A stretch of DNA of 53,977 nt, filler included, from Dimargaris cristalligena (lineage: Eukaryota), in the NCBI GenBank assembly GCA_003614675.1. It is 2 parts of 2 records of this genome, joined end to end, with 100 filler letters (N's around TTAATTAATTAA, not from the genome) between each part and the next. Parts side by side here need not be neighbours in the genome. Positions count along the whole stretch, not along the records: positions 27,041 to 53,977 come from ML002531.1; 1 more part is not named here. One strand, 5' to 3'. Shown here one piece after another: positions 7,321-53,500 of the stretch (position 1 is the first letter of the stretch; the number at the start of each line of letters is the position of its first letter). The notes under the pieces are model-generated. The model saw only the letters and a program-made list of their open reading frames with translations. It had not been told where the DNA came from and made no database searches. The position numbers were made by a program, and so were the translations under genes.

Positions 7321-7330
7321 GTATTTATAC
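7321..7330 (-). promoter_or_regulatory. Putative TATA box of the chitinase gene
   Basis: GTATAAATAC on the minus strand ~200 bp upstream of the ATG. Confidence 0.35.
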
Positions 7331-9929
7331 CAGATGATAAGTAAGGGAAGACCACCACATACACACGCCCTTCACTTCCCGATGGACGGCAAGAGAATTG
7401 GAAGGATGGGGGGGTTCAAGATGGCTACCAGTTGATGCGTAGAAGGTTTGCCAACGCTCGGGGTGGTTGTATGCTGTATGCTAATATTAAAATAATGATG
7501 AAAATAAGGAATGGTCAGCATACAGCCACTGGAAGGAAAGGCCCAAGTCGGTGGAAAGAACAGCCTCGGACGAGCCTGCCCGGTGACCCTGGCCCTTCGT
7601 TTGTACGCAACCTTGGTGGAACCGTCCCGCGAAGGCACTAGGGCTCTTGCATTATTTAGGCGACGCTTTGTTTCAACTGAGGCCCCTGCCCTTGTTGACC
7701 AACGCCTCGCAACCAAGGCTCCTGGATATCCGCTTTTGTTAGTATACTACTGGTGCAGGGGGAAAAGGCCGCAGGCGCCGTCCCCCTGGCTCGTATATCC
7801 TGGGCTTAGCCATGGCCCCTACTTCAAATAATAGTGGCAATCTGGACCAAGGTATGGTGAATCCTTCTGAACTTCCCAAAAATCGATGGTTCTCTTTGAA
7901 TTCCCGGGGGCCTCCTTCATTCATCATTGGGAGATCCCACTGGATCCTGAATCACCGGTAGTAGCCCCACAATGAATATTGGGTTTTTTATCCCAGTGGA
8001 ATCCAAGCCTCGTCAATTCAGGCACACCCGTAGGGAAAGGCTTATACTACTGGACAGGCGGCATATTCTTCTATATCCGGCCAATCGATCTTCACCATGG
8101 CAATGCCCCGATTCCTTCGGATTGCGGGATATAATTACCAATTTCCCGTTCATGAAGCTTCGTGGTTCGCAATGCGGGCGCCTTCACAGACCATCCCCCC
8201 CTCCCTTTTTTAAGGGCCATCTGCGTGGTAATCGAGCCGGGGGATTATACGTGACCGATTGCGCTAGTCATGCGGGCAAATCACCGCCCCCTGCTCTGTA
8301 CGCGCTGTCTCCCTTGATCCAAGGTGGATGTGTGTGGTACATTGGCCGGGACGGTTGTGCACCAGAGGCGGGAGTGGTGCTACCTTCGAGCCTAGATTTA
8401 TCCCCCTGCTTTCAGGTTTGGTGAGTAATCTGCGCTTTAGATTTCGACCCCCCTTGTAAAAAGTGGAAGACCAATTTGGTTTTAGTTAAGCCACGCTGGA
8501 TCTTTAACGCTATTACTACTGCCGCCCTACGCACAAGACTATGGACCGCTCCATTCTCTAAACCCCCCTTGTCTTGTGCACCCCCCCACGAGCCAGGCCA
8601 CCCCAGGGGACATGGGGGGGTTGGTTTAGTGCACGCAACAGAGGTTCTCGCTTCAAGACTCGGTTAAATATTTTGGCGTTTGTTGTTTAAATATTGTGAA
8701 TGTGCTTTTGAGTGCATTTGAAGGTTGGGCTTTCCTTTTTGTGCTTTAAATAAGCTGCCATTGCAAGATCTAGTGCTGGGGCGTGGCGTGGAGCCATTCG
8801 ACAATTTTAACCAATCCCATGGGCAGGCCCAATACTCAATTTTTTAAAAATCTGTCAGTGTGTCGGAAAACTTTAGTTGGCTAAGCAGGAACCATTCTCA
8901 CAACCAACAGTACCGAACTGCCCCTGGGAAGCGCCTGTTTGTACATGATGAATGGTGGCGGTTAATTTCAACTCGGACGGTACCTAAAAGATCGTACCAG
9001 TATTATGTCTATTCTTATATTCTTGACCTTCGCCTCAAACCCACATTCCACCTGTATTATTGCGGACCCTCTCCCTTCAAAATAGATATGTATCGGGGCT
9101 TCGTTTAAGCCCGATTCCGCCAATTGAGGATCGCCAGTGTATTCGAAGGTATACCATTACGCCCCGTAACCAGAATTGTCTGACCCACAGCGTAGAGCAA
9201 ATGAACTACTCCGCAAACCCACCAAGCTCATAGATGAGTGTTCCACTATTCTACAGTAACCAATGCAAGGTGGTAAAAACTATGCGTATAGCCCGGCTAA
9301 TGCATTAAAATACCGTGTCCCAGTTCGCATAGAGTCAGTGAATCTATTCTATACTATACCTATGCAACTGAGGGGAGTTGACGAAGGGACTAGATTGATG
9401 AATATGACATCATTACCGTACCTGTTAAATCACCCACAGACAGGAGTGTAAATCGAACCCTCCATTTCTATACACCTCAGTGCCCAGGAAACCCTCTAAC
9501 CCTAACCACCGAGTGCTTATTAATCGCCCCTTCAGTGGCGGTCGTAAACCGAAGCCCAGAAGACCCTGCAACGAACAGCGCCCGACAAATACCTGATAAT
9601 ATTACCCGCCGTCAAAGGAATACGTGCAAGGGAAGAAGGGATCTTCCGCCTCTATACCATGCCAACCCCGACGAAAAGCTTGGTTTGGCCCAGACACCAC
9701 CTACTTGGTCTATGCACATTTCTGTAGACTCTCTGAGGCCCTGAATCCCCCCCCTCCCACCTCCTTCACCAGCCCTATCCCTCGGTCCCATTCTATGCAT
9801 GTGGTTGGTCCAGTTAACTTTATCCATTTCCTAGTCCTAGTCCACTTGTCTTCTCCTGACTCTCTTTGATTGACACCCTCCCATTCTCCCTATTCTTTAC
9901 CCCAAGGCACCATTCCCACCTCCGCGTGT

Positions 9930-25300: not shown

Positions 25301-25799
25301 CTGCTTGGGGTTGATCATGGCCTTTGTCTTTGGTTGTGTTGGTTGAGCCTAGTGAATTGATGGTAATGATGTGGTTTTCCCAGTCAATATTTGCTTTGTT
25401 GGCTTTCATCCATGGTATTCCACATATAATATCATATGGGGTATCGATAATAAGGTATTCAAAACAGTGGGTACGGCCTGCATAGGATGTCTTGAGTGGT
25501 GTGCTTTTTCCTATTATATTGATACTTTGTCCATTTGCTAGGTTTGCTGTGCCAGTTACTTGGTTGATTTTTGTTTTGTCTGGTGGTAGAGTGGCTAGGA
25601 ATCTTGGTGACATGACCATTGCATCACAGCCTGTATCGAAAAGGGCATAGCTTGGTAGTCCAGCTATTTCAAGGTTGAATTTGATTGTCGACCCTACTTC
25701 ATTTTGCCAGTTACTGATGTTGATTCTTAGGGGCTCCACTTCAAGGTAATCATATTTATTTAGATCACAGTAAGGTAAGGGACCAGTAGTGGGAGCCAT
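22329..25799 (-). CDS. pol: Retrotransposon Pol (protease, RT, RNase H, integrase, chromodomain-like C-terminus)
   Basis: ALFDTGC (aspartic protease), LDMVSGYQQ / LPQG / YLDDILI (RT), TDASNFATGACLEQ...KEMLAI...TDHRPL (RNase H), H-H-C-C plus MDLITDLP/SDRDPRF/DGDVERRNR (integrase), WVGPY (GPY/F). The frame is open ~60 nt upstream of the ATG and overlaps gag in the -1 frame. Confidence 0.95.
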   Translation of the reverse strand: MAPTTGPLPYCDLNKYDYLEVEPLRINISNWQNEVGSTIKFNLEIAGLPSYALFDTGCDAMVMSPRFLATLPPDKTKINQVTGTANLANGQSINIIGKSTPLKTSYAGRTHCFEYLIIDTPYDIICGIPWMKANKANIDWENHIITINSLGSTNTTKDKGHDQPQAAEILKVFADCIRDDLPETLPPLRKYDPIIRLKPNAKLQNRPVYRLSSSETQALQKIINELEKRGQIYQCDAPFASPAFIKIKPNGTGRLLIDMRQMNEAMEDLSWPMPNTLDLLEKAKGCKIWSTLDMVSGYQQMRIAPESEYLTAFRCPLGVFCWRTLPQGCKISPPAFSHMMYGIFKDLPFVSVYLDDILIGSKDEEEHKDHLHQVFQRLRENSLFASRSKAYLFQRSITYLGHTINKNGISTSKDKLSGIENWPTLQTTNDLQSILGSFNYYRRFILNYANIAQPLTELTKSKELFNWTPEHDNAFNVLKQALLSAPVLRHFETGRATYVTTDASNFATGACLEQEFEDGRHPIEYMSTKLSPAQINYPVHMKEMLAIYLAIQRWRHLLHGPDKFIIETDHRPLQYLKSQAKLTSMQHRWLELLGEFNYTITYKPGKDNVVADALSRQPDHAINTMSLDVMAAQSENYLEQLRSGYIEDAGFSKTYKILLNPSTIPQKGQDTKIKRYQISNNKLLFYTQDEEPQLCIPNYRNCQTTLIKENHDCAIAGHLAADITFQRLRKQYYWPRMDKTIRHYIATCDTCQRTKPRTRNQNGLLFPHSIPPYPFHTVAMDLITDLPQTDKGNTAILVFMCKLSKFTYLIPVTMQAGAKDIARTFFDHVFRFHGLPNTLISDRDPRFTSEFWTELQKLCQTTINMTTAYRPSSDGDVERRNRTIEQVLRGYLNMNQNNWEDLLTAVEFAINTVTQSSTGKSAHFLVMGRDPRTPSSFLTNTEPDAEISDAEAFLRRRTNAIQVAKDHLARAQDYMAEYSNRSRQELKIEVNDWVLVKSDHINTDYDQQRPKKKLAHEWVGPYQVTKRISPVAIKVKLPPDLWRIHDVFHISNIKKHILRIGHLPFQHHEDITSVEDNQIEKILQIRKRGVRNRERTQGLLYLKGQREYQARWYNIKDQTASNNAPNDANNPIEPDEENDTTPLNSEARQPFQSAPH

Positions 25800-25804
25800 G
25801 TATT

Positions 25805-26803
25805 CTACTGGTCTTCCTGAAAATCCGAGGGCAGTTGTTGGGTTTCTGCAGTATTGGGGTTATTGGCACTGGGGTTGTACCCCATTTGGGGGGGGTATAC
25901 CTGCGGGAAATAGTAGGGTGCCATATGCATTGGGTTGGGGCCTGGCATATGGTAGCCATAGGGGGCCATTGGTTGTGCAGGCATGGGGCTGACTTCAAAG
26001 TTGTTGACGCGAGTACGGGATTGTAAGCGGTAGTGTTGGCGGTTTGGGTAGCCTGGCTGGTGGGGTTGCTTTTGTCTGTATTTTGGGCAGTTATCTTGGT
26101 AGTGGCCCAGTTGGCGGCAAGCAAAACATCCTCCATTTGCTCTCAGGTGTTCACGTTCTTGGGGAGTTAGTTTGGTAGGGTTCTGATTTCTGGGGTTGGG
26201 TCTTTTGAAGTGAAAAGCATCGATATCCATAGCTGTTGAGTTGTGCTGTTGTTGCTTAGGTGGGTTGGGCAGATGTCCAAATTGTGATTCAAGGACATTG
26301 GCACGGATAGTGGTGGTCTCAAAGTTAGTATCTGGTTCCATTTGGATTTTGTATTTGATTTCCGTTTTTAGGCCTCGGATATAGGTACGGCGTTTCTCAT
26401 CATCACTCATGTTGGGGATTCTGAGGCAAAGTTGTCGGAACTTCATTTCATAGTCAGCTACTCCTCCAGTTTGCTTAAGTTTTTCCAGGTCATGTTCTGC
26501 CATTTTGGAGTTGGAAGTATAGCTGAACTGGTTGGTGAGTCTATTGGCTAGGGTGGTGAAGTCAGGGAAGATGGATGATTCTTCTGCTTCTTGGGTGACC
26601 ATTTCGAACCAGTCATAGGCATTTCCAGTTAGGTTATTGACAGCACTGTCTAGTTTGGATTGTTCATTAGTGACTGCTTGGAGGCGGAAGTAGCGGTTCA
26701 TCTGGCTTATCCATCGTTTGGCATCACCAGTCCCATTGAATTGGGGGGGTTTCTCTCCATGGAGGCGGTGGGTTGGGGTCATGGTTGGGTTAGGAGTGCT
26801 CAT
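25805..26803 (-). CDS. gag: Retrotransposon Gag (capsid plus CCHC zinc knuckle), 332 aa
   Basis: EKPPQFNG, LTGNAYDWF, LKQTGGVADYEMKF, YIRGLK, AMDID, CFACRQLGHYQDNC. Confidence 0.92.
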   Translation of the reverse strand: MSTPNPTMTPTHRLHGEKPPQFNGTGDAKRWISQMNRYFRLQAVTNEQSKLDSAVNNLTGNAYDWFEMVTQEAEESSIFPDFTTLANRLTNQFSYTSNSKMAEHDLEKLKQTGGVADYEMKFRQLCLRIPNMSDDEKRRTYIRGLKTEIKYKIQMEPDTNFETTTIRANVLESQFGHLPNPPKQQQHNSTAMDIDAFHFKRPNPRNQNPTKLTPQEREHLRANGGCFACRQLGHYQDNCPKYRQKQPHQPGYPNRQHYRLQSRTRVNNFEVSPMPAQPMAPYGYHMPGPNPMHMAPYYFPQVYPPQMGYNPSANNPNTAETQQLPSDFQEDQ

Positions 26804-26940
26804 AGTTGGGGAAGGTGGGAGTGAGTAGAATCCAGTAGATTCAGTGGTGTCAGTATAGGTATCAGACTCAGTAGAGTCAAAAAGGATGCCAAAAGTCGTC
26901 AGGTTGGGTATTCAGGTAGGGGGGGGGGCAAGGTATAGTT

Positions 26941-33000: not shown

Positions 33001-34575
33001 ATTTGCTTCGTTTTCTATATGGCCAGTAGCCTTGGAGGATTTTACAAACGAAACTGCAAAGTGGTGCGACCGACCTACAGTGGGAAACCTCACACGCTGT
33101 TAAATGATATTTTATTTGGCTATTTTCGAGGGTGGGTCAGGCCAATGGGTTTAGATGTAAAATACCCACTAAATTATTTGCTTGCTCGTATGATCGCTTA
33201 ATTGAGACTCCGGGGTTAAAAATGTAGCCGTAAAACACAGGCATTAAGGATGATGTATTTTGTAATGGCGATAGGCTCCCCCTTTGGCAACATGTGTGGA
33301 GCCCGGCGAATGGGTGATTGCATAATAATTGTGACTGGCCGTACCGCCAAACCCTAATTAGGATAGAGCCTACTTGGTAAGTAGGAGATGTAACGGCCAT
33401 TCTAGTGTTACAGGTAGGCCGAGTTGGGCTAGGATCTACTACCTCAGCCGAGTTGGGGTTTGAGGGGGATAATAACTAAATGTATAGATATAAGTATAAG
33501 TATTTTATTAAGACATAAGGTTTGCCGGGTGGCGCAGATCATTATCTAATTTATACCTCGGGCTAATCTATTATGTTTTAATGGGGCCGGTAACCGTTCT
33601 TCGCCTTTTAGGCGTTGCTTTAGAGTAGGGAGGATCAGGTGACCTCAACATCACTAATGGGGTCGATCTCTCCTAATGGTTGCACTAGGAACCAATTTTT
33701 AAACGACCCCCTTTCTTGCAACAGCTTTGGATGATGGTGAAAATCCACACTGTGGTATGAGGTAAGTCAAGACAGCTCCTGTTGCTAATACTTTTGTATT
33801 GAGGCATATGCCGATCCCATGTGAGTATGACGCTTGCGGTTGAAGAGAGATGTTGTGCTATTGGGTGCGTGAAAAATGAGGCGGTGATTAACTAGGGGGG
33901 ATCATTATAGACAGGGTTAGAAGACGATTTGGAGAGCATTGCTGTCCGTCCAATGGGTGTTGGGTTCGACACTTCAATACAGCAGGGTATTTAGGGTAGC
34001 ACGGCCAATAGACACGCGCTGATGCATTACCATTTGAAACCAGGTCCGATGCTGGGCTATTGGCTTTTTTAGTGGGGTAAATCGCCCAGTCTAGTAATAA
34101 AGGCATGAAATAGTGTGCCACGCCCGCTGGCCTATCTGCCTGGTAACAGTGATTGACGGGCTAATTCAAGGGTAGGCGGCATTACTTCGTAGGCTGAGGC
34201 ACAGACATGTCAATGCAACATGCAATGAGGTTAATCAAAGGGGCATTATACAATGCCCACCTCACTCTCATTTGAGGGAAGTAGCAGCGTTATAGCGAAT
34301 AGATGGGTATTATATAAACCCACCCTCAAGGTCCCCTAGTGACTATATTTTATACTTATCCAACACAGCCAATGCTTTTAAGGGCGGTGTTTCATATTCC
34401 TAATTGGTCCCGTATCCGACATAATTTTCTTGGCGGAAATACCTTAATCTACTTATACCCGGTATTCTTGCACATAATTACCATTCCTCCGGCTCCTCTT
34501 ATATTTTTATAGTTAATATCGCCGCTATTCTTTCAACTGTTTTTGCCACTAGTGATTACCGCACAGTCATCAGCA

Positions 34576-37134
34576 ATGTGGTGTTTTATTCAGCTGCTTC
34601 CTCTAGCAGCTCTAGCGGCCATTTCCGTACAAGGCCAGTACGATACCGACACCGGCTCTTTAGCCGTTATCCCCAATAGCTACATTATCCGCTTCCCCGG
34701 TGATCCCGGAACGGCCGAAGCCACCAAGGGATCCGCCGCGTTTTACAGCCAAATTAAGGCCCTCAATATCCCCTACACCATCAACCAGAACTACTCGACT
34801 CTGTTTAATGCCGCTGCTCTATCGATTGGCGACGAGTACTTGGATAGCGTCGTCGGTCTGGCCAACAACAATGGCACCTGGCCTATGCGGGTAGTTAGCC
34901 TGGCCGCTCAGGTGGACTATTCCACCCGGTACTACACTCTCCCCCCTAAGAAGCAGCTAGCTCATGCCTACACCGGCGTAGATAAAGCCCAGTCCGAACT
35001 GGGGTTGACTGGAAAGGGCATCAAGATTGGGTTTTTGGACGCCGGGATTGATTACACCCACCCCGCCTTCGGTGGCTGTTTCGGACCCGGTTGTCGGGTT
35101 CAGTACGGGTACGATTTTGTCGGCGACAACTACAACGGGTACAACACGCCCCAGCCCGACGATGACCCCATCGAGGCCTGTAGTGTTCACGGTACCCATG
35201 TGACCGGTATTGCGGTGGGTAACCACGGCGAATTTAAGGGCGTGGCCCCGAACGCCACCATTGGGGCCTACCGTATTCTAGGCTGCAGCCTTAAAACGGC
35301 CACCAACGTTATTTTGGCTGGATTGGAGAAGGCCTACCTCGATGGTATGGACATTATCAATTTGTCGGTGGGTTCAGGTAGTGGCTGGTCCAACTCTTTT
35401 GAGGCCGAGGCGGTGGAGAATGCCTTCCGCCTAGGACGGTATGTCGTGACCGGGGCCGGTAACAACGGTGATGAAGGTTTGTGGACCATCACCAAACCAT
35501 CTGCGAGTCCCCACAGTATTGCCGTGGGTTCCGTGGACCTACCCCAGTACTACGCCCTCTACTTGAACGTGACCACCAGCCGTACGGTGAGTTACCAGCG
35601 CAGCGATCAGCAGCGCTTCTTGGCCCCCCTTAATTTAGTCAACGTCCCTATCGTTCAGGCCCAGAGCAGTGCGGGGGATGACTTTGCTTGCACGGCGTTA
35701 ACTGGGGTCAAGGGTGCAGTTGTGTTGGCCCAGAAGAGCGGCAGCTGTTCCCTTATCGACATGGTCAAGAATGTCTCTAGTTCCGGTGGTTTGGCCCTGG
35801 TGGTCTACAACAACGAGGCGGGTGACTTGGGCCCGCTCACGTACACCGAATACAACACCCTGCCGTCCTTTTCGATTCTCCAATCCGCTGGATTGAAACT
35901 AGTGGCCCAACTCGCCGAAGGCGGCTCACCTAAAGCCACTGTCAAGAACGACGCATTCATTTTTAAGAATAGCATGACTCAGCCCAGAGTCTCGTGGTTC
36001 TCCGCCTGGGGGTTTACCCCCGATGGCTATCTCAAGCCCGATATCGTAGCCCCGGGTAATGGGATTTACTCCACCATTCCCCAGGGCCAGGGCTCCTACG
36101 GGGTGGGGGCTGGTACTTCCTCGGCGACCCCTTATGTGGCCGGCTCCCTCGCCCTACTCTTGGAATCCAAGCGGGTGACCACCAACTTGGACGTATTCTG
36201 CTTATTGCTCAACACCGCCACCCCACTGTTGGACCGCCCCACTCGCTATGAATCCGCCGCCACGCAAGGTGGCGGGTTCCTGCAAATTTACAATGCCCTC
36301 ACCACTAATTTTACATTCACCGTCTCCTACAAGCACGAGAGTCGCTACAGCTCGGACAACTCCAAACTGGTATCCCGTACGCTGAACCTCATGAACCTGG
36401 GTTCCACCGCGGTCACCTATAATTTCGTCTATCTACCCGCTGTATCTGTGTCGGGCTTTGACAAGTCCAACGTGTCGGTTTCTACACCGCGCACTAGTGC
36501 GGTGGCGGCGGATGGTTACTTCAACGCCGACACCGTTAAGGTACCGGCCAAAGGCACCGCCAAGAACAGCGTTTCGGTTGATTTGTCGGCCATTCGACCC
36601 AACGACTTCATGGCCCATAGTGGGTACGTAATCGCCTACCCGGCCGACGGCAAGGGCTATAATCTGACGTACCCCATTGGCGGTTACGCCTACCCGTCCG
36701 CCACCATCCCTATGCTGAGCCCCCAGTTCGGTGGTATCGATCTACCCTGCACCAGGCGCCAGTCCGCCGCGACCTGCCTGACGGGTACCAATTCCTTTAC
36801 GTTTGTCGGCAATGACGTGCCCGTCATCCGTTTCCACCTCCAACACCCCGTCCGCCGTCTTCGCATTCGGATCGCTTACTCCAAGACCCCCGATTCGGCC
36901 CACGCCAGTGTTACCGAAAACCATTTTTTGTGGTTGGGTAAAAATCTTTTAAGCGACGACCAGCCCTACTACGAGTACAGCTGGAACGGCCGGGCCTACT
37001 ATTCCGATGAACCCAATGATATTTTCAATTTGTCGAATAACGACTATGTCCTAATGATGGATTTCTACGCTACTACCGGTGACGACCCACCCACGCGTTA
37101 TACCTCCAGTGTGATTCGCGTGGCCCGCAAGTAG
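34576..37134 (+). CDS. Secreted S8 subtilisin-like protease with PA domain and C-terminal Fn3/Ig-like region (~852 aa, intronless)
   Basis: Signal peptide MWCFIQLLPLAALAAISVQG, I9-like prodomain (IPNSYIIRF), triad motifs GFLDAGID, HGTHVTGI and GTSSATP, oxyanion GAGNNG, PA insert (GAVVLAQKSGSCS...LVVYNN), KPDIVAPG. Confidence 0.93.
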   Translation: MWCFIQLLPLAALAAISVQGQYDTDTGSLAVIPNSYIIRFPGDPGTAEATKGSAAFYSQIKALNIPYTINQNYSTLFNAAALSIGDEYLDSVVGLANNNGTWPMRVVSLAAQVDYSTRYYTLPPKKQLAHAYTGVDKAQSELGLTGKGIKIGFLDAGIDYTHPAFGGCFGPGCRVQYGYDFVGDNYNGYNTPQPDDDPIEACSVHGTHVTGIAVGNHGEFKGVAPNATIGAYRILGCSLKTATNVILAGLEKAYLDGMDIINLSVGSGSGWSNSFEAEAVENAFRLGRYVVTGAGNNGDEGLWTITKPSASPHSIAVGSVDLPQYYALYLNVTTSRTVSYQRSDQQRFLAPLNLVNVPIVQAQSSAGDDFACTALTGVKGAVVLAQKSGSCSLIDMVKNVSSSGGLALVVYNNEAGDLGPLTYTEYNTLPSFSILQSAGLKLVAQLAEGGSPKATVKNDAFIFKNSMTQPRVSWFSAWGFTPDGYLKPDIVAPGNGIYSTIPQGQGSYGVGAGTSSATPYVAGSLALLLESKRVTTNLDVFCLLLNTATPLLDRPTRYESAATQGGGFLQIYNALTTNFTFTVSYKHESRYSSDNSKLVSRTLNLMNLGSTAVTYNFVYLPAVSVSGFDKSNVSVSTPRTSAVAADGYFNADTVKVPAKGTAKNSVSVDLSAIRPNDFMAHSGYVIAYPADGKGYNLTYPIGGYAYPSATIPMLSPQFGGIDLPCTRRQSAATCLTGTNSFTFVGNDVPVIRFHLQHPVRRLRIRIAYSKTPDSAHASVTENHFLWLGKNLLSDDQPYYEYSWNGRAYYSDEPNDIFNLSNNDYVLMMDFYATTGDDPPTRYTSSVIRVARK

Positions 37135-40380: not shown

Positions 40381-42618
40381 ATGTCCGCCTTGCAACCCAC
40401 GGAGAAGTCGGGCCATTACCAGGGTATGTTCAGCTGCTCCAGCAGCCTAGATGGGCAAGACTGCAAGTCCTCGGGCTAAAACTGACTGGGGTTCTTTGTC
40501 ACTAACTCTACTGCCCTGGCTTTGGTCCTTTAATTGCTATACCCTAACCATGTACAAATAAGTGAAAGTCAAGGGCTTCCCTTCGGCCCCACCAACTCAG
40601 CCCTATAGCCGAGCCCGGCGCGCTAAACGGGTGTTTATATACGCCGCCGCAGCGGCCCTCGGGACCTGGGCCACCTTTTATGCCCTGGGCGCGTATGATA
40701 CAGGTAATGAATGAGCAAGTCAGACTCTCGCAACATACCAACCGGGGTTTTCACTCTAATTTTAACCCATGGGCCATGTTGGTGTGCTTTATACCAGAGA
40801 TGGGGGTGAACCTACTCTCCGCTTCTTGGTTAAAGAAAGCCCCGCTCTGTAATGATGTGGACACCCTACTTAAATTACCCTGTTCCTTGTCAAAAACAAC
40901 CGGGTCTTCGTCATTATATATCAGATGGCTTGGAATGCAATACCACCACCACCCCTATTAACCATATTCTCTCCATACCCATTAATCGATACCTCTACCC
41001 AACTATTGGATAGATACCGCTCCGCAAACTCCCGCTGCCCGCAGCTCAGACTCTGTCACTATCATCAACGAGGACCTACTGGACCAGAAACATCTGCGCA
41101 GTCACTTGGAAACCTTCTACCACATCGCCCAAACCACCGCCAACTCCCGCTCTGTGCGCAAGGGTTTCCGGGAAACGGCCGATTATGTTTTTAATCTGCT
41201 GGAAAGTCAAAAGGCCTGCGATACCCTAGAGACCCAGTGGTTCAAGAGCCCCGTGTGGACCGAACACCGCCCCGCCCGTTTATCCATGTCCTATCCGTAC
41301 TGGGCTTCGTACCAAAATGGCGTCGATTTCAAGAGCATGCGCTACGGTGGAAGTGGATCGACTTACTTGCCCAACTCACGTGTCATTCCGGTTCGCTCCG
41401 GTGGATGTGATCCCAAGCACTACGACGCCGAAGCCAAAGGTGCCGTGGTTGTCATGCAGGAAACATCCGCGTGTACCTTTTGGGAAGCGGCTTATACGGC
41501 CGAGCAAGTCGGAGTGGCCGCCGTGCTGTTTTTCGGCCAACCCAGTCGGCGCCGTCTTTTGAACCACCGCATTCGCCTGGTCGGCTGGAAGGAAGGAGAC
41601 CCTCTGGTCAAGATTCCCGTCCTGGCCGTATCCTACGCAGTCGGTCGAATGCTTTCGTTCACCCCCAACGCCCGGGTCAATATTGTAACCTCGGCCGCCA
41701 TTAGCATCGAAAAAACCTTCAATATTCTTTGCCAGTGGGACGCGCCCCAGGTTAACGACACCATTGTTATTGGATCACACCTCGGTAAGTACCCATTATC
41801 TGGTGGCTATGTATATCGTTGCCGATTTCAATGCTAAATTGAGAATATTAGGCTCAGCGTCGTAAAGTTATGGACACACTCTAATGTTGGAATATGAACT
41901 GACTGACTGGTCTATATTGACCCCGTTGTTTGCATTAGATTCTGTCGCGGCCGGGCCCGGCATCAATGACAATGGTTCCGGTAGTGCAACCACCCTGGAA
42001 ACCCTTCTGGCCCTTCGTCGCTCGGGATTCCAACCCACCAACCGCCTCGTATTTGCTTGGTGGAGTGCGGAAGAGGATGGCCTCCTAGGCTCGCGCCACT
42101 TTGTCCGCTCCCTTCACTCAACCCCCGCCGACTCGGACCAACCCACCCCCGCTCCGGGCCATTTGAAGTTTTCCCTCACGTGGGACCAAATCTCCTTTAA
42201 CTTAAACTTTGACATGCTGGCCTCGCCCAACTATATCCCCATGGTGCATCGTGCGTCCGACGCCCCGGCCGACGTAACTATTGGTTCCTATTTTGTCCAA
42301 AAGGAATTCGAGACTTTTTTCCAAGGCCGTGGTTATCCGTATATGTTGTCCGATATGAAAGGGGGCAGCGATTTCGTGCCGTTCATGGAACACGGTGTGC
42401 CCACCGGTGGAATCTTGACGGGTGCTGCCGAAATCAAGACCGAAGCCGAACGTAAAAAATTCGGCGGGTTAGCCAACGCCCCGTTGGACCCGTGCTACCA
42501 TCAGGCCTGTGACACCGTCGATAATATCAACTGGGAGGCCCTGTATCGTATGTCTGAAGCGGCCGCCCATGTCATTCGCGTTTTCGCTGGGGCGGACGAT
42601 GTTCGCCTGCAAGCCTAG
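40381..42618 (+). CDS. M28 metallo-aminopeptidase with PA domain (aminopeptidase Y-like); exons 40381-40423, 40563-40703, 41014-41784, 41939-42618 (~544 aa)
   Basis: Splicing restores GSHL-DSV. Also GPGINDNGSGSA, WWSAEEDGLLGS, NLNFDMLASPNY, GSDFVPF, DPCYHQACDTVDN and a PA domain (KGAVVVMQ...AAVLFF). Three phase-1 GT-AG introns; the first two exons are less certain. Confidence 0.9.
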
Positions 42619-44338
42619 TATTCCGGGCTTGGGGTTCATTTAGTTTTTATACGCCGGTAGCCGGCTGATTTTATTATTATTCTGGGGCACCTCTTTAACC
42701 AAAACTGTATTCAATTTCCTCTAAGTAGTTTAGCACCTCTTTCGCCACATTACGGCAGGCCGGTCTATCGGATCTTAACTATGTGTTCATTTTACAACAA
42801 CGGGTGGTGAACTCGATCAGACGCAACCGTGTGGAACTATTGGTTTGAATTAAACTGGTAAGTTATAAATATAATGAGTATGTATGCATAATTAAGGGCG
42901 GTTGGGGCCGCAGTGTTGATATACGGGAATGAAAGTAGCCTACCAGTAAGCCCCCAAAGGGACGATGTACATATAAATTGCCATCTCGTCAATAGCCGAT
43001 ATGCGGAAGCGCGGGAATGTGACATAGCTGGCGGAGTACCATTTGCCCTTTCTAGAAGCAATTGGCTTAGGCAGGTCTGGTGAATAACTATATCATGCCG
43101 ACCAGCTATAAAAGGGTTCGTGATACCATATGCCCCCGCCTAAAAAGAGCGGAGCTGATTCCCGGCTGGACTAGGTTGCTCCATTCGGTTGATTTTAAAA
43201 GTAATCATCCCCCAAAGACCAGACACCTGGGAACCATCGGGTTGTTCAGTTAAATATTGTAGTTTGTTTTGCATAATAGTGGCATAGAAATATCTTCCAA
43301 AACCACCTTCTGGGGTGTCGCGAAAATGGCAATATAAAGTCTGCTATGACCTCCCAATTGACTATATTATTTTTTCACTTTAAAGGGCAGTCACTAGACC
43401 ATCTATCCAATAGTAGAAGCAATCCTTCGGTAGATTTTAATTGGTGCTCTCTTTGTGCTTCAATGTTTCACAAAGGAACCTCTTGAAAAGAATGGTCGAT
43501 TTTTGGGGTATCCGTTTGATTACGCTTTTCCTCGTCACCAACCCTAGCGCGGCGCCCTCTGGAGGCGACATCCCTCATACCCCAGGAAGTACGCTGTAAG
43601 GGCCCTAAAAATAATATGAATCACATCGCGCATTTCATCGCCCCTCCTCCCTGGCTTAGTTTGGAAAATATAATTCCAAAATGGATTACCGAAAAGCGTA
43701 CGAGAAGTTTTGCAAGTGGTATATCTACACCCATTGAAAAGGGCTGTCGACCACTTCCCCTTCCCTTTAAATATATACAGCTCGGTAATATAGTGAGTTA
43801 TATGCAATAGCCCCACTACAGCAATGGTCACACTTAAACTGTAAAACTGTACTCGCCGTTTAAAATGGCGAATGATGTGATCGGGCAATAACCCTTCGAA
43901 ACATATGGGCGGGAAACTGGGGATAAGGCTTTCTAAAATAACGAGTAGGACGGGTCAATATGAAGAGAAAGTACATGTCCCCGAAACTAAGCAGAGTTGC
44001 TACAGCCAAACTAACGCAATAGGTTGTAACATCACCCTCCAATAATCCGGCATCCCCTTGGCCAACTTTATATAACGACAGCCTTCCCGCCCCATATATT
44101 CCCCCTTACCCCGGTTTTAGACCCTGCCAATGGCCCTAAGTATTTTAACTCGCTGTTCCGTATTTATTCCGTCTGTTTACAGCCATTTGTTTTACCCCTT
44201 GAGCCGATAATATAGCTATATATACCCTTTTACATGGTCGATTGTCCCACCTACTGTAAGGACCAATGGTAAATCCGCAATATTCGAACCACCCACTTCG
44301 CCAGCCTATAATTTTGTTTTTTTTTAAAAAAGACTATC

Positions 44339-46220
44339 ATGCCGAACCATCGAGTTAGCCGCAATTTGGGCTGGGCCATACTTATGGGTCTAATCCTCGG
44401 ATTGTCCATTCAAAAAGCCACCGCGGCCCCTGGCCTATCCATGAGTTCCCTCAATCATGACGACTTTGATATGGAATATGACCTCCCGGTGGAAGAATTT
44501 GGATATTGGGACAATTTACCCAGAGAGCTGGAGCAGAATATCATCAAATTGTCCTCGCCATTCCAGCGCTACCAATTGTCTGGAACGTCTCAAGAATTCC
44601 AGGCTCGTGTTTTAAATGCAGAGTATGAGTTGTTAAACGTAAGTATATTTCGTGTTAATACTATTCAGTGGGAATAGGGAGTCACACCAGTCTCTCAAGT
44701 TTAGTTAGTCATATTGGTGAGGTACCCTATGTGTGTGTGGTTAAGGTAAATGCTAGCTCCACCAGTGTGCAACATATTTACCGCATGGCCCCCGCCTGAC
44801 TGATGATGGCCCAGCCAAGCTACCGGAATCCCCCCCTGCCACACCCTCCTTTTGTCTTCGTTTACCGGGACTCCCTATGCATTGCGTGTGTAGAAGGCCC
44901 TCGGACAGTTGTCCCACTCATTTTCTGATATGCATGTTTAAAATACTCCTAAACTACCTCTACCCATATCTCTCCTCCATTAAACTATGTAGCTTTGGAA
45001 CTGTGTAGGAAAATAGGAAAGCCCTATTGACGGATTCCGACCCACGCAAGGATGGTGGGTTGTCCCAACTGGAAGCGCATACTGCGTTTCAATCCTGGGC
45101 TCAACTGGTCAGCCAACCGCTAGCGGCTTTTCTGTTTCTCGTGGCCGCCGAAAGTCTGATAGAGGGGACTGAACAAATGGAGAGGTCGGCTAAGAAAAGC
45201 CACCACTATATAACGCGGCTTGTGATATTCAACTACTGGCAGTACATAAATCCCCAACAACTACCCGCATCCGTTCGGGCGGCCCGTTACCCCCTATTGG
45301 CCCAAGTGGACATCCAGAACAATGGAACGGAACTCATGGAGCTGTTAAATGCTTTGACCGATCCAGCGCGGGTCAGCCAGACTGATAGTGGAGGCTGGAC
45401 TTCGGCCCAGCGGGAGCAGATCCAGGAAATCCTATCATTTATCGAAGTAGACAGTAGCACACCCTTGTTTTCGGACACTTTAGTGAATACCTCCGATTGG
45501 ATTTTTACACTGTTCGGCGATTTAATACAATTGATCATGATTCGATTGTCCACTACTAACCGAGTGGAAGACTTTCGGAACTTTATGGTCGGTTTACAGT
45601 CCTGGAGCCAGTACGTGGGGTTAAACGACGACGCAGGTAATGAAGTTTACCGCCATCTTAACCAATTCGCCATCATTCTGTCCGCCGTCGCCCAGGAACC
45701 CCAACAACTTGCTGACCGTACGAAAGTACTCATTGACCTAACTGACCCGGAAACTAACACGGAGAATATTCATGCGGCCCAATGTAATCTGGTGCGCTTC
45801 ATGGAAAAGGTCAAGCTGCCCAAAGGTGCGGCGTTTTTGGCCATGCAATGGGAATGTCCCCCCCCAGTCGAGCGAAGATGGGGATATACCACCGGACTAA
45901 ACGGACGAAGTCGATATCGGGATTTTGTTAATATGGACGATTATAAGAGTCTCATCCCTAATTGGGCACTACTGACTGACGATAATCAAGTAGACCTGTT
46001 GACCCTCATGTCCGGATTTGAACCCGAAGAGCGCGCTCTAGTGTTCGATATGAGTTCCCAGATGGGTCACAAATTGAATTTGGACTCGTTTGTCGAGGAT
46101 TTCGAGGGCGAAGATACGCAGAAACTTAGACAGGCGCTTGACAACAATAATGAAAATTCCGTGTGCATTTATGATCAGCTGAATCCCAGCTCCCCAAAAT
46201 GGTGGTCCCGCTTTTTTTAA
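44339..46220 (+). CDS. Predicted secreted protein with N-terminal F-box-like motif; exons 44339-44638 and 45009-46220 (~503 aa)
   Basis: Signal peptide (MPNHRVSRNLGWAILMGLILGLSIQKATA|AP), then WDNLPRELEQNIIKLSSPFQRYQLSGTSQEFQARV. GTAAGT donor at 44639 and TAG acceptor at 45008 join the two ORFs in phase 0. TATATATA at ~44217. Confidence 0.75.
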
Positions 46221-47525: not shown

Positions 47526-50500
47526 CTACCCCGATCCGCTCGATGGCGCATTTGTATCTGTTCCCTTAATAAGAGACCGACGCAAGTGCCACAGCCCACT
47601 AAGTGCCGGATAATCGCGCGGTAGATTGAGTAGAAACTGGTCAAAGTAATCGGCCCACTGATGGACCAGACGAGTTCCGGTTGGAGTGGAGGTGGGTTGG
47701 TCATTGTCTGACCTACTCCCTTTAAAGATATGATTGTCAAAAATCGATCCATAAAGTAGATGGGCCAGTGCAATACACTCCTCCGGGTCCTGGTATTGAA
47801 TATAGCAAACCAAAGCATCGCTCGCGTAGGCCAACCGGAACTCTAGTGCTCGAACCGCCTCCTCTTCCTCCTCGTCTTCTTCCACTTCGGACTTGGGTTC
47901 GATTTGGGGGCTGCTTCTGGTCGGCGAGGGAAGGGGACTGCGGAGTATCATAAGGGCCGATGGACCAATTCGGTAGAAATCGTAAATCAATTCTGAAATA
48001 TGGTTCTGGAGGCCTCCAAAGCCATGCGACTGGGGGTTTCCAGGGCCCAGTTCTGCATAGTCGTCTAAATCCACCATTAACTTTAGGGGAATCCAATACC
48101 GCTCCGTAAGGTGATCGAGGTTATAAATAGCCACATATTCCTGAATGTACCGGAGCTTGTCAATGGTCTCCTTCATCCTGCCGACAGTTTGAGCGTCTAT
48201 CGCTATGGTGATGGTGGTGCGTTGGTGTGGCACAAGGGTGACGAGTTGGGTCTCAACCGTGAATAAACGGGACTTGTTGACGAACCGCAGACGAACGGGA
48301 CGGGGTGATGGATTAGTAAGAACCAGGGACTGGTTAAGTGAATGGAATCGATTCGCCGGTGGGTGTTCGCCAAGGTCAGCCAATGCTGGACGACTCAGAT
48401 GAAACGGCACATATCGGGGAATACCACTCACTGTTGGATGGAAACAGGGGGCGTGGGCAGTGAACTGCAGCTGGAAGTCCTTGACCATCCGTGAATTAAT
48501 TCGAACAGTAAATTGCTTTTGAACAGCACCCGTATGCGAAGAATCCGGGCCTGCCAGCGGTCGGTAGAGTAGGTATACGCGGACTTTACTCTTTGGCTCA
48601 ACCGGCAGCACTTTGAAAAATTTCAGATGGTTCCGCGACAAGGAAAAGAAAACCTCGCTTGGGTCATCAGTGTCGAAATAAGAGCGAACCTTGAAGGTGG
48701 CTGGGGTGTTGCCCAAGTTCTCCAACATTAGGGACCGCTGCGCATAGAGTTGGCCAAGTGTGAGAGGCTGGTAGCGAATAGTGGAGTCCCCTTTGCCGTT
48801 TTCGACTACCCAGGCTCGGAACCCACAATGGTGCGGGTTGGTGGCGGTGCCAATTACCTCGCTGGGGATATTTTGTAGTACCTCAATCCGAACCCGGACT
48901 GACCCCAGGATTTGTCCGTGATCACAGTCCTCCAAAAGGAGATAAGCAGTGTGGACGCCACAGGTGCCGGGGATTGCCGTAACCGTCACAGTCTGCTTCC
49001 CATGGTCCGTCGTCCCCGCTGGAATAAGAGCGCCCGTACTAGGGGATACGGCTAACCAAGGGCGGTTGGTGGAGGTGGCCAGGGGGAATCGGATTACATA
49101 GTTAACCGCCCGCCCGCTACATTGGCTCTGGAGTATCAGTTTGCGGGTAACCGGTTCGCTGGATACGACATGCCGACCTAAGTCAAGATCATACATAAGT
49201 GACTGGTGGTGGGGGTCGGCATTAGGGGCCAGTTTGCAGCCCTTGATGACAATGGGGTGGCGCTCAAACGAATCGGGCGTGTTCCGTTTATCGGAGGCTC
49301 CCACTGAAGCTGGCGGATGTAAAGTGGCTGTCAAATCGACTGATTCAGTGAGGTCAGCGGCCGGAGTGCGATTGTTTATCCACTGGTCCCACTGATCGTC
49401 GGATGGCGGATATGCCGCTAATGAACGGGATCCCACCGGCACCGGCGCAGGGGGAAAATCGGAGTGGGTGTACGCCACGTTCCAGTCCTCCTCGTCCGTG
49501 TTGGCATGGCTCGGCCCCCGGGTCTGGTTTTGGCTGACTGAATGGGATTGACGTCCGGATGGCTCCTGACCCGATCCCGGATCGTCCAGAACTCGGGCGG
49601 TGCGGCGAGGCTTAATTGCCACCACCACTGTTTGGCGAATCCGAGATAGAGAGTCGACATCTTCCACGTGGATTTTGACCTCAGCTGGGTAACCTGCAGG
49701 GGAGGGTGCTAGCCGAATTGCCTGTCGGAGAGTACCCAAAGGTGGGATGGCGTTCCGGGCCTCGGGTTTAAAATCAATAAACTGGAGTGGGCGGGCATTG
49801 AGAAACTCCTGGGGTCGTTCCACGTAAATTTTGAACCGCAGGGAGTGGAACTCGGATAGATTAGAAATGATCAGTTCCTGGGTGGCTGCATCCGACACAT
49901 CGGGATTCTGGGTATCCGGGAGGTAATCAAAGGTCAGCTGATGCGGGGTAAGTCGGAATATGGGCTTCTCTGTAATAACAACCCGAATAGGAATCTCGTG
50001 GGCCGGCGGTAAATCGATTCCTTCGGTAGGACTATGGGGCTGGGTAGTCATTGACTTCCCGACGCCCATTGGAACAGAGTAACGGTGGTCATGGATGACT
50101 AAAGGACGAGGTTTGCTCATTCCCTCAGCTCTGGGTGATGCCGACAGTTGGGTGTCCGGTTCATTATCCGAGTCACTGTTGACATCGGGCAGTTCTTGGC
50201 GGCTCCGAATCCAAATATGGCCCAGTCCAACCCCAGGGGGACCCAACACCAGGGGGGGAAGGGCATTAATGCCCCGGTCAGATGGCTCCCCGGGCGCTAG
50301 CCGCTGGCCCGGTCGGGAACGCACCCGTACTCGAATTTCCACCCGGCCATGTGGGCGGAGAAACACTACATCGTTTAACGGTGAGTTACTGAATCGCGAG
50401 AGTAGCTCCACGCCGATATAGCCTGCAAGCGGCGGAGACAGCGTAAAGCCAATGTCACAATTCAAGTCTTGAGCTGTCATGTTCTTGAAGGCGAACCACG

Positions 50501-53500
50501 TATCGCTAGCGCGTCCATTGGGAAGATAAGGGTGCTCCACATTAGTTAGCACAATTTGCTGATCGGGTAAATGATCGAATTCAATACCGAAGGAGGTGAC
50601 GTCGGCCTGAATCAGCACCTGGTGGGTATCTACCGGATTAATCAAATTAAGGAACCGGAGATGCCACTCGCGGGGTCCAGCACTGGAATCAGGGAGAGAC
50701 CGAGGGTCAACAGTTACGGTGAGAACATGTGAACAGGACGATTGGTCGCAACCGGGGAGGGTAGCTTGGAAGGAATCGGTTCCGGTTAAAGTCACGACAC
50801 CCGGCTCGGAGTCGGGCTGGTTCACCATTAGCCCGGGGGGGCATGCCACCCGGTAAGGGAGAGGAGCTTCGGCTTGATTAGTAATGGTAAAGCAGAACGT
50901 GACCGGTCGCCAATTGTTATTGTATCCAATGCGGCCCAGAGATACCCGCTGGGGCTTCAAGGACGCAGTAGAAAGACCGTAATGTACGCGAATGGGCACA
51001 ACCCCAAGTGTGAAACTGGCCCGAGGATTATATAAGACTAGCTGATACGTCGCCGAAAGGAGTCGCCCGGCCTCCAGTCGGTTGAACTCGGCGCGACCGA
51101 CGGGAGGGGTTGGGGGTAACTGAGTAAACAGGTAAACGGTATCGTTGGGGAGCAAATCGATGGTTGACCCACATGGGGTCCAATCTGGTAAGGGGTAGTC
51201 TATAGCAGGGCCGCTCCGACCGGGTTGTAGAGCCAGTGGGGATAATTGCACCACGGGTGACTCGGGGAGACTAGAGATAATTCCCTGGGAAGGAAAGGGG
51301 CGAGACCAAGTCACTTGGAGGGCAGCATTGGCCAGGGGGTAGAGACTCAGTATATTCGAACTGATATTCTGAACAGCCAGGGTGCGCCAAGTGTGGGGTC
51401 CTCGATCCCCGCGTAATTCGGGTGCAGGGGGGATTGGAGTGAGGGAATAGGCAGAGGTAGAGCCGGGACGGTCTTGTTCAGCCACTTGTACTGCCATAGG
51501 CTCCCATTCGAGTGCCTTAAGGGGACCTGTGGTGCCAAGGGTCGGGCCCATGCCATTGGGATTGCTCACTGTTCGGAGCATCCCACAGTCTACAAAATAC
51601 ATGACATCCACTGAGAGCACCTGGCGGGAGTTAAACCGATTGCTGATGGTGATCCGAGAGGCGAAGAACCCAAATTCCTTGCACGATACTCGAAATGGCA
51701 CAATCGCCGTCTCGTTACTGCTCGATTCCGTGACCCTGGGTACAGTAGAATTCGGTTCGCTCAACTGGGCGCCTTGGGGCGGGGCTCTCCGGGTATTTGT
51801 GGCCCCCTTCAGATGCCCCTGGTGCACGTCAAAGGCGATGTCGAGGCTGGGACATTCCAGTCGATAGGCCGCCGGAAGCTGTTCCGTTCGGTTGGTAACC
51901 CGGAGCTGGCCGTAGAGAGTGGTTCCGACACGAGCAACGGTCCCGAAGTCCATTGTAGCCGGATGAACCGCCAGGAATGATTCACCTAGATGAGCCTTCA
52001 GTTTCATAGTACGAACGAACAGCTTGCACTCCGGGGCGGGCGGTGGGGCTAGTTCCTGGGTCAAGTTACTATCATCTATCGGAATCCGGGTCGGCGGGAC
52101 TATGGACACTTGGAACTTCAGACCCCCGACTAAGGCCCGGCACTTGACGAGGTCGACGGCTAGATCCGGCCCAGTCACCGTCACTGAAGTATCCCAACGT
52201 TTACGAAGACTATCCTGTTCCGGGTCTAAAGCCGAGAGTCGGACCCGGTGGTGAGTGCGCATCCCTTCGGTGATAAGAACCGCCACCCATATCACCCCCG
52301 AACTATGAGGCGAAAGAGTCAGACGCTCTAGAGGGGGTGAATCGTCGTGCTTGTCCTGGAGGATCGCCACTTGGTGGGTCAGGTTACTAGAACAGTCAAT
52401 ATTAACCTCGAAGGGCAGGTCATTGCGAATAGTAAGAGGTGAGATTTTGGAGCAACGGCGACTAATGTCAATATAGCATTGTCAAGATCAAGTATAGAAG
52501 GCGAGGTAAGCGAGCGGTTCCCAAGCGCCGATCGGTGAGAGGAATCAACGGCCGACTCGATGGAGTCATCCAAGGGGGCAGAGTGGGAGGGGAATGATAT
52601 AGCGGTCTGGGTGAAGGCGTACACGGTGTAGGTCAGAACTGTTATGCGCTCGTTATGAAGATTGCGGACTGCCAGGGACAGCGGATAAACCCCCGGGGAT
52701 AGTGGCTTGACGACTAGGGCTGTAGAGATTGAGTCTGCAGGCCGCACAGTACCCAGGTGATCCCCCATTTCCACCTGGATATTGGCATTGTCGACTGGGA
52801 ACAAGAAGCAGTGGTATTGGACGGGTAGCTGGGCCGATGTGGGTAGCTCCGGCAGCGCCTTGTAGTGGGCGGTAAACTTCAGGCTGGCGGGCTTACCCAA
52901 CTCACATACCACGACAGCAGTCTCGGTGTTAGATATGGTCAGGTAATTAAGTGTGGCAAGAGAGGGGGTGGTAATCCCTTCATTTGGCGATGGGGGCTCG
53001 TAGGAGACGGGTGGGCTGTTCAGGGGAGGAACGGGTTCGGTAGCCAAAGTAAACCGCGGGCATGTAGCTGGGATCCGGCGAGGGGAGAAGCCGGCCCGTG
53101 GTCCCAGCGGAGAGCGAGGAAAAACACGGGGCAGTATTCCAGTTGGTAGTGCTAGAGGAGACATAACCTCGGCGGTAGGCAAAAGAGCGATGAACTGGCG
53201 GTGGGTGAAACATAATGCAGCGGTGAACCCCACGCGCTGGCGCTGGTCGGTGTTCTTGTGCTCGTGAACCAGAATTTGGCCGGTAACCGGAAAGGTGATA
53301 GGGGCGGGGGCAGGCGGTTTGACCTCGGGCACAACTGCCACCGCGAATTCCACCGTTGCTACAACCCAGGGCTGCAGCACTAGCTTGCATTGGTTGGGGA
53401 AGCGGTGGGCATTGGCTTCTAAAGTGAAGGTAGACTGGCTCTCGGAAGTTTGGAAATCGGGGGTGGTTTCAGAGGACTGGGCACAGTGGTTTAGCAGGGC

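Follow-up and report, generated by a model that had tools for sequence, protein, structure and literature searches.

We analyzed a stretch of 53,977 nucleotides from the genome of Dimargaris cristalligena (assembly GCA_003614675.1), hereafter called the window, which joins two parts of the assembly end to end and of which positions 27,041 to 53,977 come from ML002531.1. On its plus strand, at 44339–46220, the window carries a two-exon gene for a protein of 503 amino acids that combines a signal-peptide-like N-terminus, a divergent F-box, and a largely helical C-terminal domain. The reading that fits these features best, and which we favor tentatively, is that of an F-box adaptor that passes through the secretory pathway, is delivered into host cells, and there captures host Skp1; the N-terminus and the F-box are what we read in the protein, and everything beyond them we infer. 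Components of Skp1–Cul1–F-box (SCF) ubiquitin ligases act in the cytosol and the nucleus, so a signal peptide and an F-box would be at odds with each other in a protein that never leaves its cell of origin. Given that this pairing is kept across a diverged, expanded, and species-restricted protein family, export followed by action in the cytoplasm of another cell appears to be its best explanation—and the architecture that the family members share further strengthens the case for an effector.

A two-exon gene supported by two deposited models

The open reading frame begins with an ATG at 44339–44341, downstream of an in-frame stop at 44309–44311. Exon 1 (44339..44638, plus strand; 100 codons) encodes the signal-peptide-like segment, an acidic linker, the first two helices of the F-box, and the start of the third. 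It is followed by a phase-0 intron of 370 nt (44639..45008, plus strand; GTAAGT...TAG) and by exon 2 (45009..46220, plus strand), which contributes 403 codons and a TAA stop at 46218–46220, and encodes the helical domain together with a C-terminal subdomain. The donor at 44639 has the canonical sequence GTAAGT; the corresponding acceptor AG lies at 45007–45008. If the exon-1 frame is read on into the intron, a stop follows after 17 codons. The AG at 45007–45008 is the only acceptor that gives back a long frame: the downstream AG at 45015–16 is out of frame, and with the upstream AG at 44991–92 the frame hits a stop.

The spliced translation is identical to a deposited D. cristalligena protein, P0041 (RKP37172.1), whose residues 1–100 are exactly the translation of exon 1. 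It differs at two residues (V51M and K163T) from P0003 (KAJ1985043.1), which stems from a second D. cristalligena assembly and to whose residues 101–503 exon 2 is 99.8% identical by tblastn. Both deposited models contain the junction ..ELLN|ENRK.., and since they come from different assemblies and are spliced identically, two independent gene models use it. The union of the two exons, proposed in an earlier sequence-only reading of this DNA, is thus supported. The junction is also crossed without a gap in the alignment with the closest paralog, and it is spanned by a predicted helix (residues 85–107) in an AlphaFold2 model, with a predicted local distance difference test score (pLDDT) of 93 and 84 in the flanking blocks. 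Within the window, tblastn found no second copy of the gene.

The N-terminus resembles a cleavable signal peptide

Residues 1–29 (44339..44425, plus strand) were classed as signal-peptide-like by a simple heuristic based on hydropathy and charge, complemented by inspection by eye. The n-region MPNHRVSRN carries a net charge of +2; the h-region, LGWAILMGLILGLSI, consists of about 15 hydrophobic residues with a maximum 11-residue Kyte–Doolittle mean of 2.64; and the c-region, QKATA, leads to a predicted cleavage site at ATA|AP (residues 27–29|30–31). The segment hence has a positive n-region, an h-region in the range of 7–15 residues, and small residues at −3 and −1, as judged by this heuristic and by eye. 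By two established criteria for signal peptides, the positive-inside rule and the (−3,−1) rule, residues 1–29 are predicted to form a cleavable signal peptide that would leave the remainder of the protein lumenal. A signal peptide cleaved near ATA|AP had been suggested before, and both the layout of the three regions and their conservation among paralogs (see below) agree with it at the level of the heuristic. We also considered a mitochondrial presequence and rejected it by eye, as the segment has an unbroken hydrophobic core rather than an amphipathic, arginine-rich helix.

The signal-peptide-like segment is followed by an acidic linker (residues 30–54; 44426..44500, plus strand; APGLSMSSLNHDDFDMEYDLPVEEF), which the sequence-only reading had also noted and which is predicted to be disordered: pLDDT falls below 50 at residues 23–50 of the AlphaFold2 model computed from an alignment with 22 paralogs. 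Among these paralogs, the linker ranges from about 10 to about 90 residues and is variable in sequence, with an HDDFD-like motif common to the window protein, P0026, P0028, and P0022. In the subfamily that the window protein forms with P0026, P0005, P0028, and P0022, residues 30–44 (44426–44470) show the order AAPGLSMS, directly after the predicted cleavage site, then, a few residues further on, HDDFD. Such conservation within an otherwise hypervariable linker could reflect a processing or uptake signal. The AAPGLSMS stretch includes a methionine usable as an alternative start.

At its other end, the protein terminates in ..WWSRFF, which is not an HDEL-like signal for retention in the endoplasmic reticulum (ER). 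The mature part contains three cysteines, compared with zero to seven in the paralogs, and there is no conserved cysteine pattern; this low cysteine content fits a cytoplasmic site of action.

A divergent F-box follows the linker

We assigned the F-box to residues 55–99 (44501..44635, plus strand), with the pattern LPRELEQNIIKL..P....L..TS..F...V. It contains the motif WDNLPRELEQNIIKLSSPFQRYQLSGTSQEFQARV (residues 57–91), which sits exactly where it had been placed before, at 44507–44611. Set against the general F-box consensus, the window protein has the expected residues at L59-P60-x-E62-L63, I67-I68, L70, P73, L79, T82-S83, F86, and V90. With E-values up to 10 allowed, PF00646 was the only Pfam family matched by exon 1 (12.8 bits, E 0.12, below the curated cut-off of 20.5), the match running from residue 57 to 91 and covering profile positions 1–35 of 43. 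A 59-residue segment scored slightly higher, yielding 14.1 bits and an E-value of 0.046.

The paralogs point the same way. At the homologous position, P0005 exceeds the PF00646 cut-off (22.0 versus 20.5 bits; E 1.4e-4)—as the one full-length paralog out of 16 to pass any Pfam cut-off—and weak matches to the F-box clan were found in P0021, P0034, and P0035. When 11 segments of family members were compared with Pfam, four matched PF00646 (best E 2e-5), three PF12937, and one PF15966, and the sole match outside the F-box families was to a domain of unknown function in a single member. The proline and the glutamate of LPxE, as well as a later leucine, are invariant in all 11 segments. Because the F-box is the only Pfam match on exon 1 and the same clan is matched at the homologous place in paralogs, we judge from these sequence comparisons that the match is more than chance. 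Against PDB sequences, exon 1 gave a single chance match (CENP-T, E 0.61), and the top match of a profile built from the 11 F-box segments was the leucine-rich-repeat protein LIC10831, which shares the LPxEI word only. A reading of LPxEI as a leucine-rich repeat was rejected, as the protein has a single copy of the motif and is helical in the predicted structure.

Predicted structure supplied the second line of evidence. From the single sequence, AlphaFold2 returned an unusable model (pLDDT 36.5); with the alignment of 22 paralogs, pLDDT rose to 73.9, with a predicted template modeling score (pTM) of 0.74. In this model, residues 61–100 reach a pLDDT of 91–93 and the region forms three helices (62–71, 74–81, and 85–107). 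We compared the model with 48,161 representative chains using VIA-align, and among the 50 matches listed, seven were F-box domains, all of which superposed on model residues 50–101, and each through the F-box region of the solved chain. Their Z scores of 5.5–6.1, at root-mean-square deviations (rmsd) of 1.4–3.1 Å over 38–48 residues, count as middling on VIA-align's scale, where this holds for any Z below 8. The seven comprise FBXL17 (6w66_B; Z 6.1, 2.2 Å, 44 residues), FBXL2 (6o60_C; Z 5.9, 1.4 Å, 40 residues), a Skp1-bound F-box (5ibk_E; Z 5.8, 3.1 Å, 48 residues), Legionella AnkB (5k35_A; Z 5.8, 2.9 Å, 47 residues), FBH1 (9xzj_F; Z 5.8, 1.9 Å, 41 residues), FBXL5 (6vcd_B; Z 5.7, 1.4 Å, 38 residues), and Skp2 (1fs1_C; Z 5.5, 2.1 Å, 41 of 41 residues). 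As the domain is only 40 residues long, absolute Z scores cannot be high; the weight of the match lies in the convergence of seven different F-box proteins on the same 45 residues, with the whole domain covered. Paralog conservation, the Pfam match of a paralog, and the predicted three-helix fold therefore all support the F-box claimed by the sequence-only reading, and from model and sequence together we conclude that residues 55–99 represent a true, divergent F-box, whose binding to Skp1 is a prediction.

The pairing of a signal-peptide-like segment with an F-box is conserved in a species-restricted family

To place the protein among its relatives, we searched 1.84 billion representatives clustered at 50% identity exhaustively. 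The search recovered 22 further proteins (E 5e-61 to 1e-5), corresponding to at least 22 other clusters, and all 23 matches, the query itself included, belong to D. cristalligena. Word-indexed protein searches, run both with the single protein and with the family alignment, returned the protein itself and nothing else. What emerged from the paralog check is thus a species-restricted family of the same architecture. Overall identity among its members is 20–39%; broken down by region, mean pairwise identity is 0.26 in the F-box, 0.31–0.33 in two blocks at the core of the helical domain, and 0.11–0.17 in linkers and loops. Matches in D. cristalligena only, strong divergence, hypervariable linkers, signs of tandem duplication (see below), few cysteines in the mature part, and the lack of an ER-retention-like C-terminus are traits reminiscent of effector families.

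Among 17 N-terminally complete models, 15 possess an N-terminal hydrophobic core (maximum 11-residue Kyte–Doolittle mean of 1.55–3.06) preceded by an n-region with a charge of zero or above, and the core is followed by small residues and a proline (for example, ASA|AP, VSA|P, LSA|P, or ALA|P). The two exceptions are P0034, which starts with ..AAPGL.., the post-cleavage motif of its subfamily, and P0038, which starts with MPSE inside the F-box; judged by these starts, both are most simply explained as truncated models whose first exons were missed. The pairing of signal segment and F-box is conserved in at least 13 paralog clusters, and in at least 14 paralog models an LPxE(I/L) box follows the signal segment and precedes the helical domain.

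First exons of this family appear to be missed often by annotation. Longer models from the other assembly restore the N-terminus in P0026, P0028, P0034–P0037, and P0040. For instance, a model truncated N-terminally in one assembly has a complete counterpart in the other for P0008 (374 aa) and P0034 (501 aa), and for P0012 (373 aa) and P0036 (629 aa). Likewise, BJ085DRAFT_38432, a signal-peptide fragment of 55 residues, and BJ085DRAFT_38431 (279 aa) are probably one gene that was split by annotation. Two members with adjacent locus tags on one contig, BJ085DRAFT_33159 and BJ085DRAFT_33160, suggest tandem duplication. Six of the 22 members (P0029, P0031, P0036, P0035, P0040, and P0018) end in a motif of the form [IVL]-P/L-x-[DQY]-F, such as ..IPSDF, ..ILHDF, ..VPEYF, ..VPPDF, or ..IPLQF; the window protein, as mentioned, ends in ..WWSRFF. 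This conserved aromatic end might be a docking motif.

The C-terminal part forms a predicted helical domain

Downstream of the F-box lies an alpha-helical, repeat-like domain (residues 101–390; 45009..45878, plus strand), defined by conserved family motifs and by model helices that mostly reach a pLDDT of 80–97. In the family alignments, the motifs read PLLALVD.Q..G, MARLATT.RF.DL..FM, FNR.AI.LAAVAQQ, and LP.GA.FL...W.C. The AlphaFold2 model bears out the helical region of roughly 400 residues described previously, with about a dozen stacked helices between residues 120 and 381; the third helix of the F-box continues into this domain. The remainder (residues 391–503; 45879..46217, plus strand) comprises a variable acidic loop and a small alpha/beta subdomain with LTDDNQ and F.P.E motifs, of which LTDDNQM is strongly conserved in the C-terminal part of the family alignments. 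The alpha/beta unit itself spans approximately residues 415–490, has strands at 420–422 and 428–433, and is predicted with a pLDDT of 84–92 at residues 411–440 and lower values afterwards.

The helical domain matched no family in Pfam. Neither did exon 2 match any PDB sequence, and a profile of the whole family gave nothing below an E-value of 0.6 there; residues 110–503 had no usable match in the ESM Atlas. In fold comparisons, the C-terminal part matched designed helical repeats and PCI, HAT, and TPR-like solenoids only, at Z scores of 7.6 or less. Rescoring Foldseek's top 970 chains with VIA likewise gave generic helical repeats only (Z ≤7.6), a range that, by the tool's notes, reflects common arrangements of helical proteins. 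On the strength of the model, we read this region as a new, putative substrate-binding domain of the alpha-solenoid type, the sole ground for the substrate-binding role being its position after the F-box.

A proposed model of host delivery and its alternatives

The hosts of D. cristalligena are Mucorales. That the fungus is a haustorial mycoparasite, as the sequence-only reading had assumed, is stated in PMC9866270, which names this lifestyle in its title and text. In the model we favor, the signal peptide would direct co-translational import into the ER, so that the F-box would not titrate Skp1 of the parasite itself. Next, the protein would be exported at the haustorial interface and taken up into the cytoplasm of the Mucorales host, where the F-box would dock on host Skp1–Cul1–Rbx1, and the helical domain would recruit host proteins for ubiquitination and degradation—with different paralogs recruiting different targets. 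Extended to the family, D. cristalligena might deploy at least 20 signal-peptide F-box proteins as haustorially delivered SCF mimics that degrade host proteins, a wider proposal that we put forward with more reserve than the delivery of the window protein itself.

Several observations weigh against host delivery. With respect to the N-terminus, the signal-peptide call comes from a simple heuristic and inspection by eye, and two of the 17 models have no hydrophobic N-terminus. Translation could instead begin at Met35 and yield a cytosolic form, and P0004, the second-assembly model of the closest paralog, does start at the equivalent of Met35, without the signal peptide that P0026 has. The highest 19-residue Kyte–Doolittle mean after residue 45 amounts to 1.82, at residues 133–151; this stretch sits in a model helix (135–160; block pLDDT 55–90), and its hydrophobicity is not kept in the paralogs. 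As for the F-box, the Pfam result is mixed: P0005 passes the cut-off, whereas the window protein stays below it on exon 1 and on the 59-residue segment (12.8–14.1 bits) and its full-length sequence has no Pfam match at E-values up to 10. The profile of 11 F-box segments retrieved no F-box protein from PDB sequences at E-values up to 10, Foldseek returned nothing at E 0.001 or better when the whole model was searched against the PDB, and the fold evidence, with its middling Z scores, comes from a predicted model only. Moreover, the C-terminal core is well conserved instead of hypervariable, we know of no uptake motif for the Dimargaris lineage, and since host and parasite Skp1 are both fungal, sequence alone cannot tell which of them is bound.

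The strongest competitor, which we regard as rather unlikely, is an endogenous F-box protein that serves the parasite's own SCF ligase, the family being a lineage-specific expansion of substrate receptors. The N-terminus might then be an uncleaved anchor with the F-box facing the cytosol, or a start at Met35 or Met45, or a shorter transcript, might yield a cytosolic form. Fold and motif indeed match those of ordinary cellular F-box proteins, and the site of SCF action speaks for this view, as do the start of P0004, the two models that begin without a hydrophobic segment, and the conserved C-terminal core. Lineage-specific expansions of F-box families occur in many eukaryotes. Lineage-specific F-box enrichment is also reported for non-pathogenic fungi (PMC8146833). 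An anchor is, however, at odds with the shortness of the hydrophobic cores (about 11–16 residues) and with their setting: positive charge before the core and a small-x-small pattern, proline, and an acidic stretch after it would, by the two rules named above, indicate that the signal is cleaved and that the C-terminal part ends up in the lumen, rather than an anchor facing the cytosol. Retention of the segment in 15 of 17 diverged paralog models argues for its translation and selection, and the two models lacking it are most simply missed first exons.

A second alternative grants secretion, but the F-box-like unit would only cap the helical domain structurally and would not interact with Skp1. 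The site of action would then lie outside the host cells or where haustorium and host meet, and the protein might, for instance, bind a component of the host surface or wall. We consider this improbable. It would account for the signal-peptide features, for the sub-threshold F-box scores of the window protein and most paralogs (one in 16 full-length paralogs passes), for the continuation of helix 3 into the helical domain, and for the failure of the family F-box profile to match any F-box protein among PDB sequences. Yet the positions conserved across paralogs are precisely those that define an F-box (LP, E, I/L, P, L, S, and an aromatic residue), and the predicted unit superposes on Skp1-bound F-boxes over the whole domain, at an rmsd of 1.4–2.2 Å. 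Few cysteines in no conserved pattern would also be unusual for extracellular fungal effectors.

Finally, that exons 1 and 2 do not lie on one mRNA is very improbable: the intron of 370 nt is long next to the few nucleotides that separate the open frames of the neighboring M28 peptidase gene, but two deposited models from different assemblies share the junction, donor and in-phase acceptor are sound, at least 14 paralog models join the same N-terminal module to the same C-terminal domain, the closest paralog aligns across the junction without a gap, and one continuous helix (85–107) is predicted over it with high confidence.

Comparison with known F-box effectors and cellular F-box proteins

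The closest validated analogue of the window family is SSGP-71 of the Hessian fly, Mayetiola destructor. SSGP-71 proteins are secreted F-box proteins with leucine-rich repeats (LRRs), whose F-box binds wheat Skp1-like proteins and whose activity is abolished upon F-box deletion, as reported in passages of PMC7330099 and PMC4617103. Both families are large, diversified, lineage-specific parasite families with a signal peptide (in Dimargaris, a predicted one), an N-terminal F-box, and a C-terminal domain for protein binding (in Dimargaris, a putative role), and the capture of host Skp1 seen in SSGP-71 is the mode of action that we propose for Dimargaris. In place of the LRRs of SSGP-71, the Dimargaris proteins carry an all-helical domain that is unrelated to them and lacks relatives in Pfam and the PDB; here one fungus makes the protein and another is the host, and Skp1 binding is predicted only. 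We found no LRR family in Pfam at E-values up to 10 after the F-box, where the model is all-helical and then forms the alpha/beta unit. Lacking LRRs, the window protein is an analogue, not a member, of the F-box-LRR effectors SSGP-71 and RipG/GALA.

Bacterial F-box effectors—Ralstonia RipG/GALA, Legionella AnkB and LegU1, and Agrobacterium VirF—likewise use an F-box to enter the host SCF ligase, and RipG7 binds Arabidopsis SKP1-like proteins, according to a passage of PMC4617103. The F-box of AnkB superposes on model residues 55–101 with the values given above for 5k35_A (Z 5.8; 2.9 Å over 47 residues). Unlike the window protein, these effectors travel through type III or type IV secretion and not by an ER signal peptide, and their partner domains are LRRs or ankyrin repeats. 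AnkB also has a C-terminal CaaX box (abstract of PMC5506055). Pfam detected no ankyrin repeats in the window protein, and its WWSRFF end has no cysteine at −4 and hence no CaaX box, so the protein is not of the AnkB type.

Cellular proteins of the 'FBXO' type, which couple an F-box to a domain other than LRRs or WD40 repeats, resemble the window protein in that an N-terminal three-helix F-box leads directly into a substrate-binding domain. Conserved LP, hydrophobic, and aromatic positions are also shared with cellular F-box proteins, for which Skp2, FBXL2, and FBXL5 served as our fold references. Cellular F-box proteins, however, reside in the cytosol or the nucleus and are not known to carry a signal peptide for secretion. 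The Dimargaris C-terminal domain further sets the family apart, as it was found in D. cristalligena only among the 1.84 billion representatives. A fungal precedent is of a descriptive kind: a review of the Piriformospora indica secretome counts F-box proteins with a predicted signal peptide among predicted intracellular effector candidates (one passage of PMC3708536). In both fungi, a predicted signal peptide is combined with an F-box and action is proposed to follow translocation into host cells. P. indica, in contrast, is a plant-root symbiont, and the review names its candidates only as a class, which restricts the comparison to their description.

Implications for fungus–fungus parasitism

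The F-box itself is not new. P0041 was already deposited under the automatic UniRef name 'F-box domain-containing protein', which seven of the 23 family clusters, P0041 among them, bear. A secreted F-box protein that mimics receptors of the host SCF ligase is a known kind of effector as well. What is new here is the producer, the fungal host, the C-terminal domain, and the conservation of the pairing of signal peptide and F-box at the level of a family. Our literature search, which subscription papers largely escaped, found no account of signal-peptide F-box proteins in Dimargaris or any other mycoparasite, and no effector mechanism was found described for Dimargaritales in the literature searched. 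To our knowledge, little has been established about the molecular means by which biotrophic mycoparasites control the fungi they live on. The word 'F-box' is absent from the main text of PMC9866270, a comparative genomics study.

Should host delivery prove true, the family would be the first set of ubiquitin-ligase-hijacking effectors used by one fungus against another, as well as the first fungal system comparable to SSGP-71 and the bacterial F-box effectors in which experiments are feasible. SCF mimicry, which bacteria, viruses, and a gall midge are known to use, would then also occur in the parasitism of fungi on fungi; a new substrate-recognition fold would be added, and the F-box/Skp1 contact would offer a handle on the host proteins that the parasite must remove. 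That 15 of the 17 models with a complete N-terminus show the pairing makes host delivery a specific, testable prediction. If the proteins instead turn out to be anchored or alternatively started endogenous F-box proteins, what is left is a species-restricted expansion of an unknown domain—of modest interest.

Other features of the window

Apart from the F-box gene, the window represents ordinary fungal chromosome. Two peptidase genes lie just upstream, both on the plus strand: an S8 subtilase with PA and Fn3-like domains (34513–37134) and an M28 peptidase with a PA domain (40986–42618). The latter is divided into two open frames 28 nt apart, a gap that points to a short intron or to a shift of the frame. 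Downstream, on the minus strand, an open frame of 1651 codons (47526–52481) shows weak matches to HYDIN/CFA65/ASH Ig-like domains (E 8e-6), of which no single stretch passes. A further open frame of 532 codons continues to position 53977 and runs off the window.

Elsewhere in the window, we identified a GH18 chitinase (5822–7324, minus strand; E 1.5e-76) and a ubiquitin chain-elongation factor of the Ufd2 type with a U-box (9870–12878, plus strand; E 8e-223); we infer no link between either of these genes and the F-box gene. A FACT subunit (SSRP1/Pob3-like), a concentrative nucleoside transporter, and a quinolinate phosphoribosyltransferase are also encoded in the window. Long open frames on the minus strand mark a Ty3/gypsy-type retrotransposon (22329–26911), with a gag-like frame of 368 codons (Ty3 capsid, Retrotrans_gag) and a pol frame of 1176 codons that contains RVT_1, RNase H, integrase zinc-binding and core domains, and a Tf2-1 SH3 domain. 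At 22–28 kb, where this element lies, GC skew is strongly positive and AT skew is negative.

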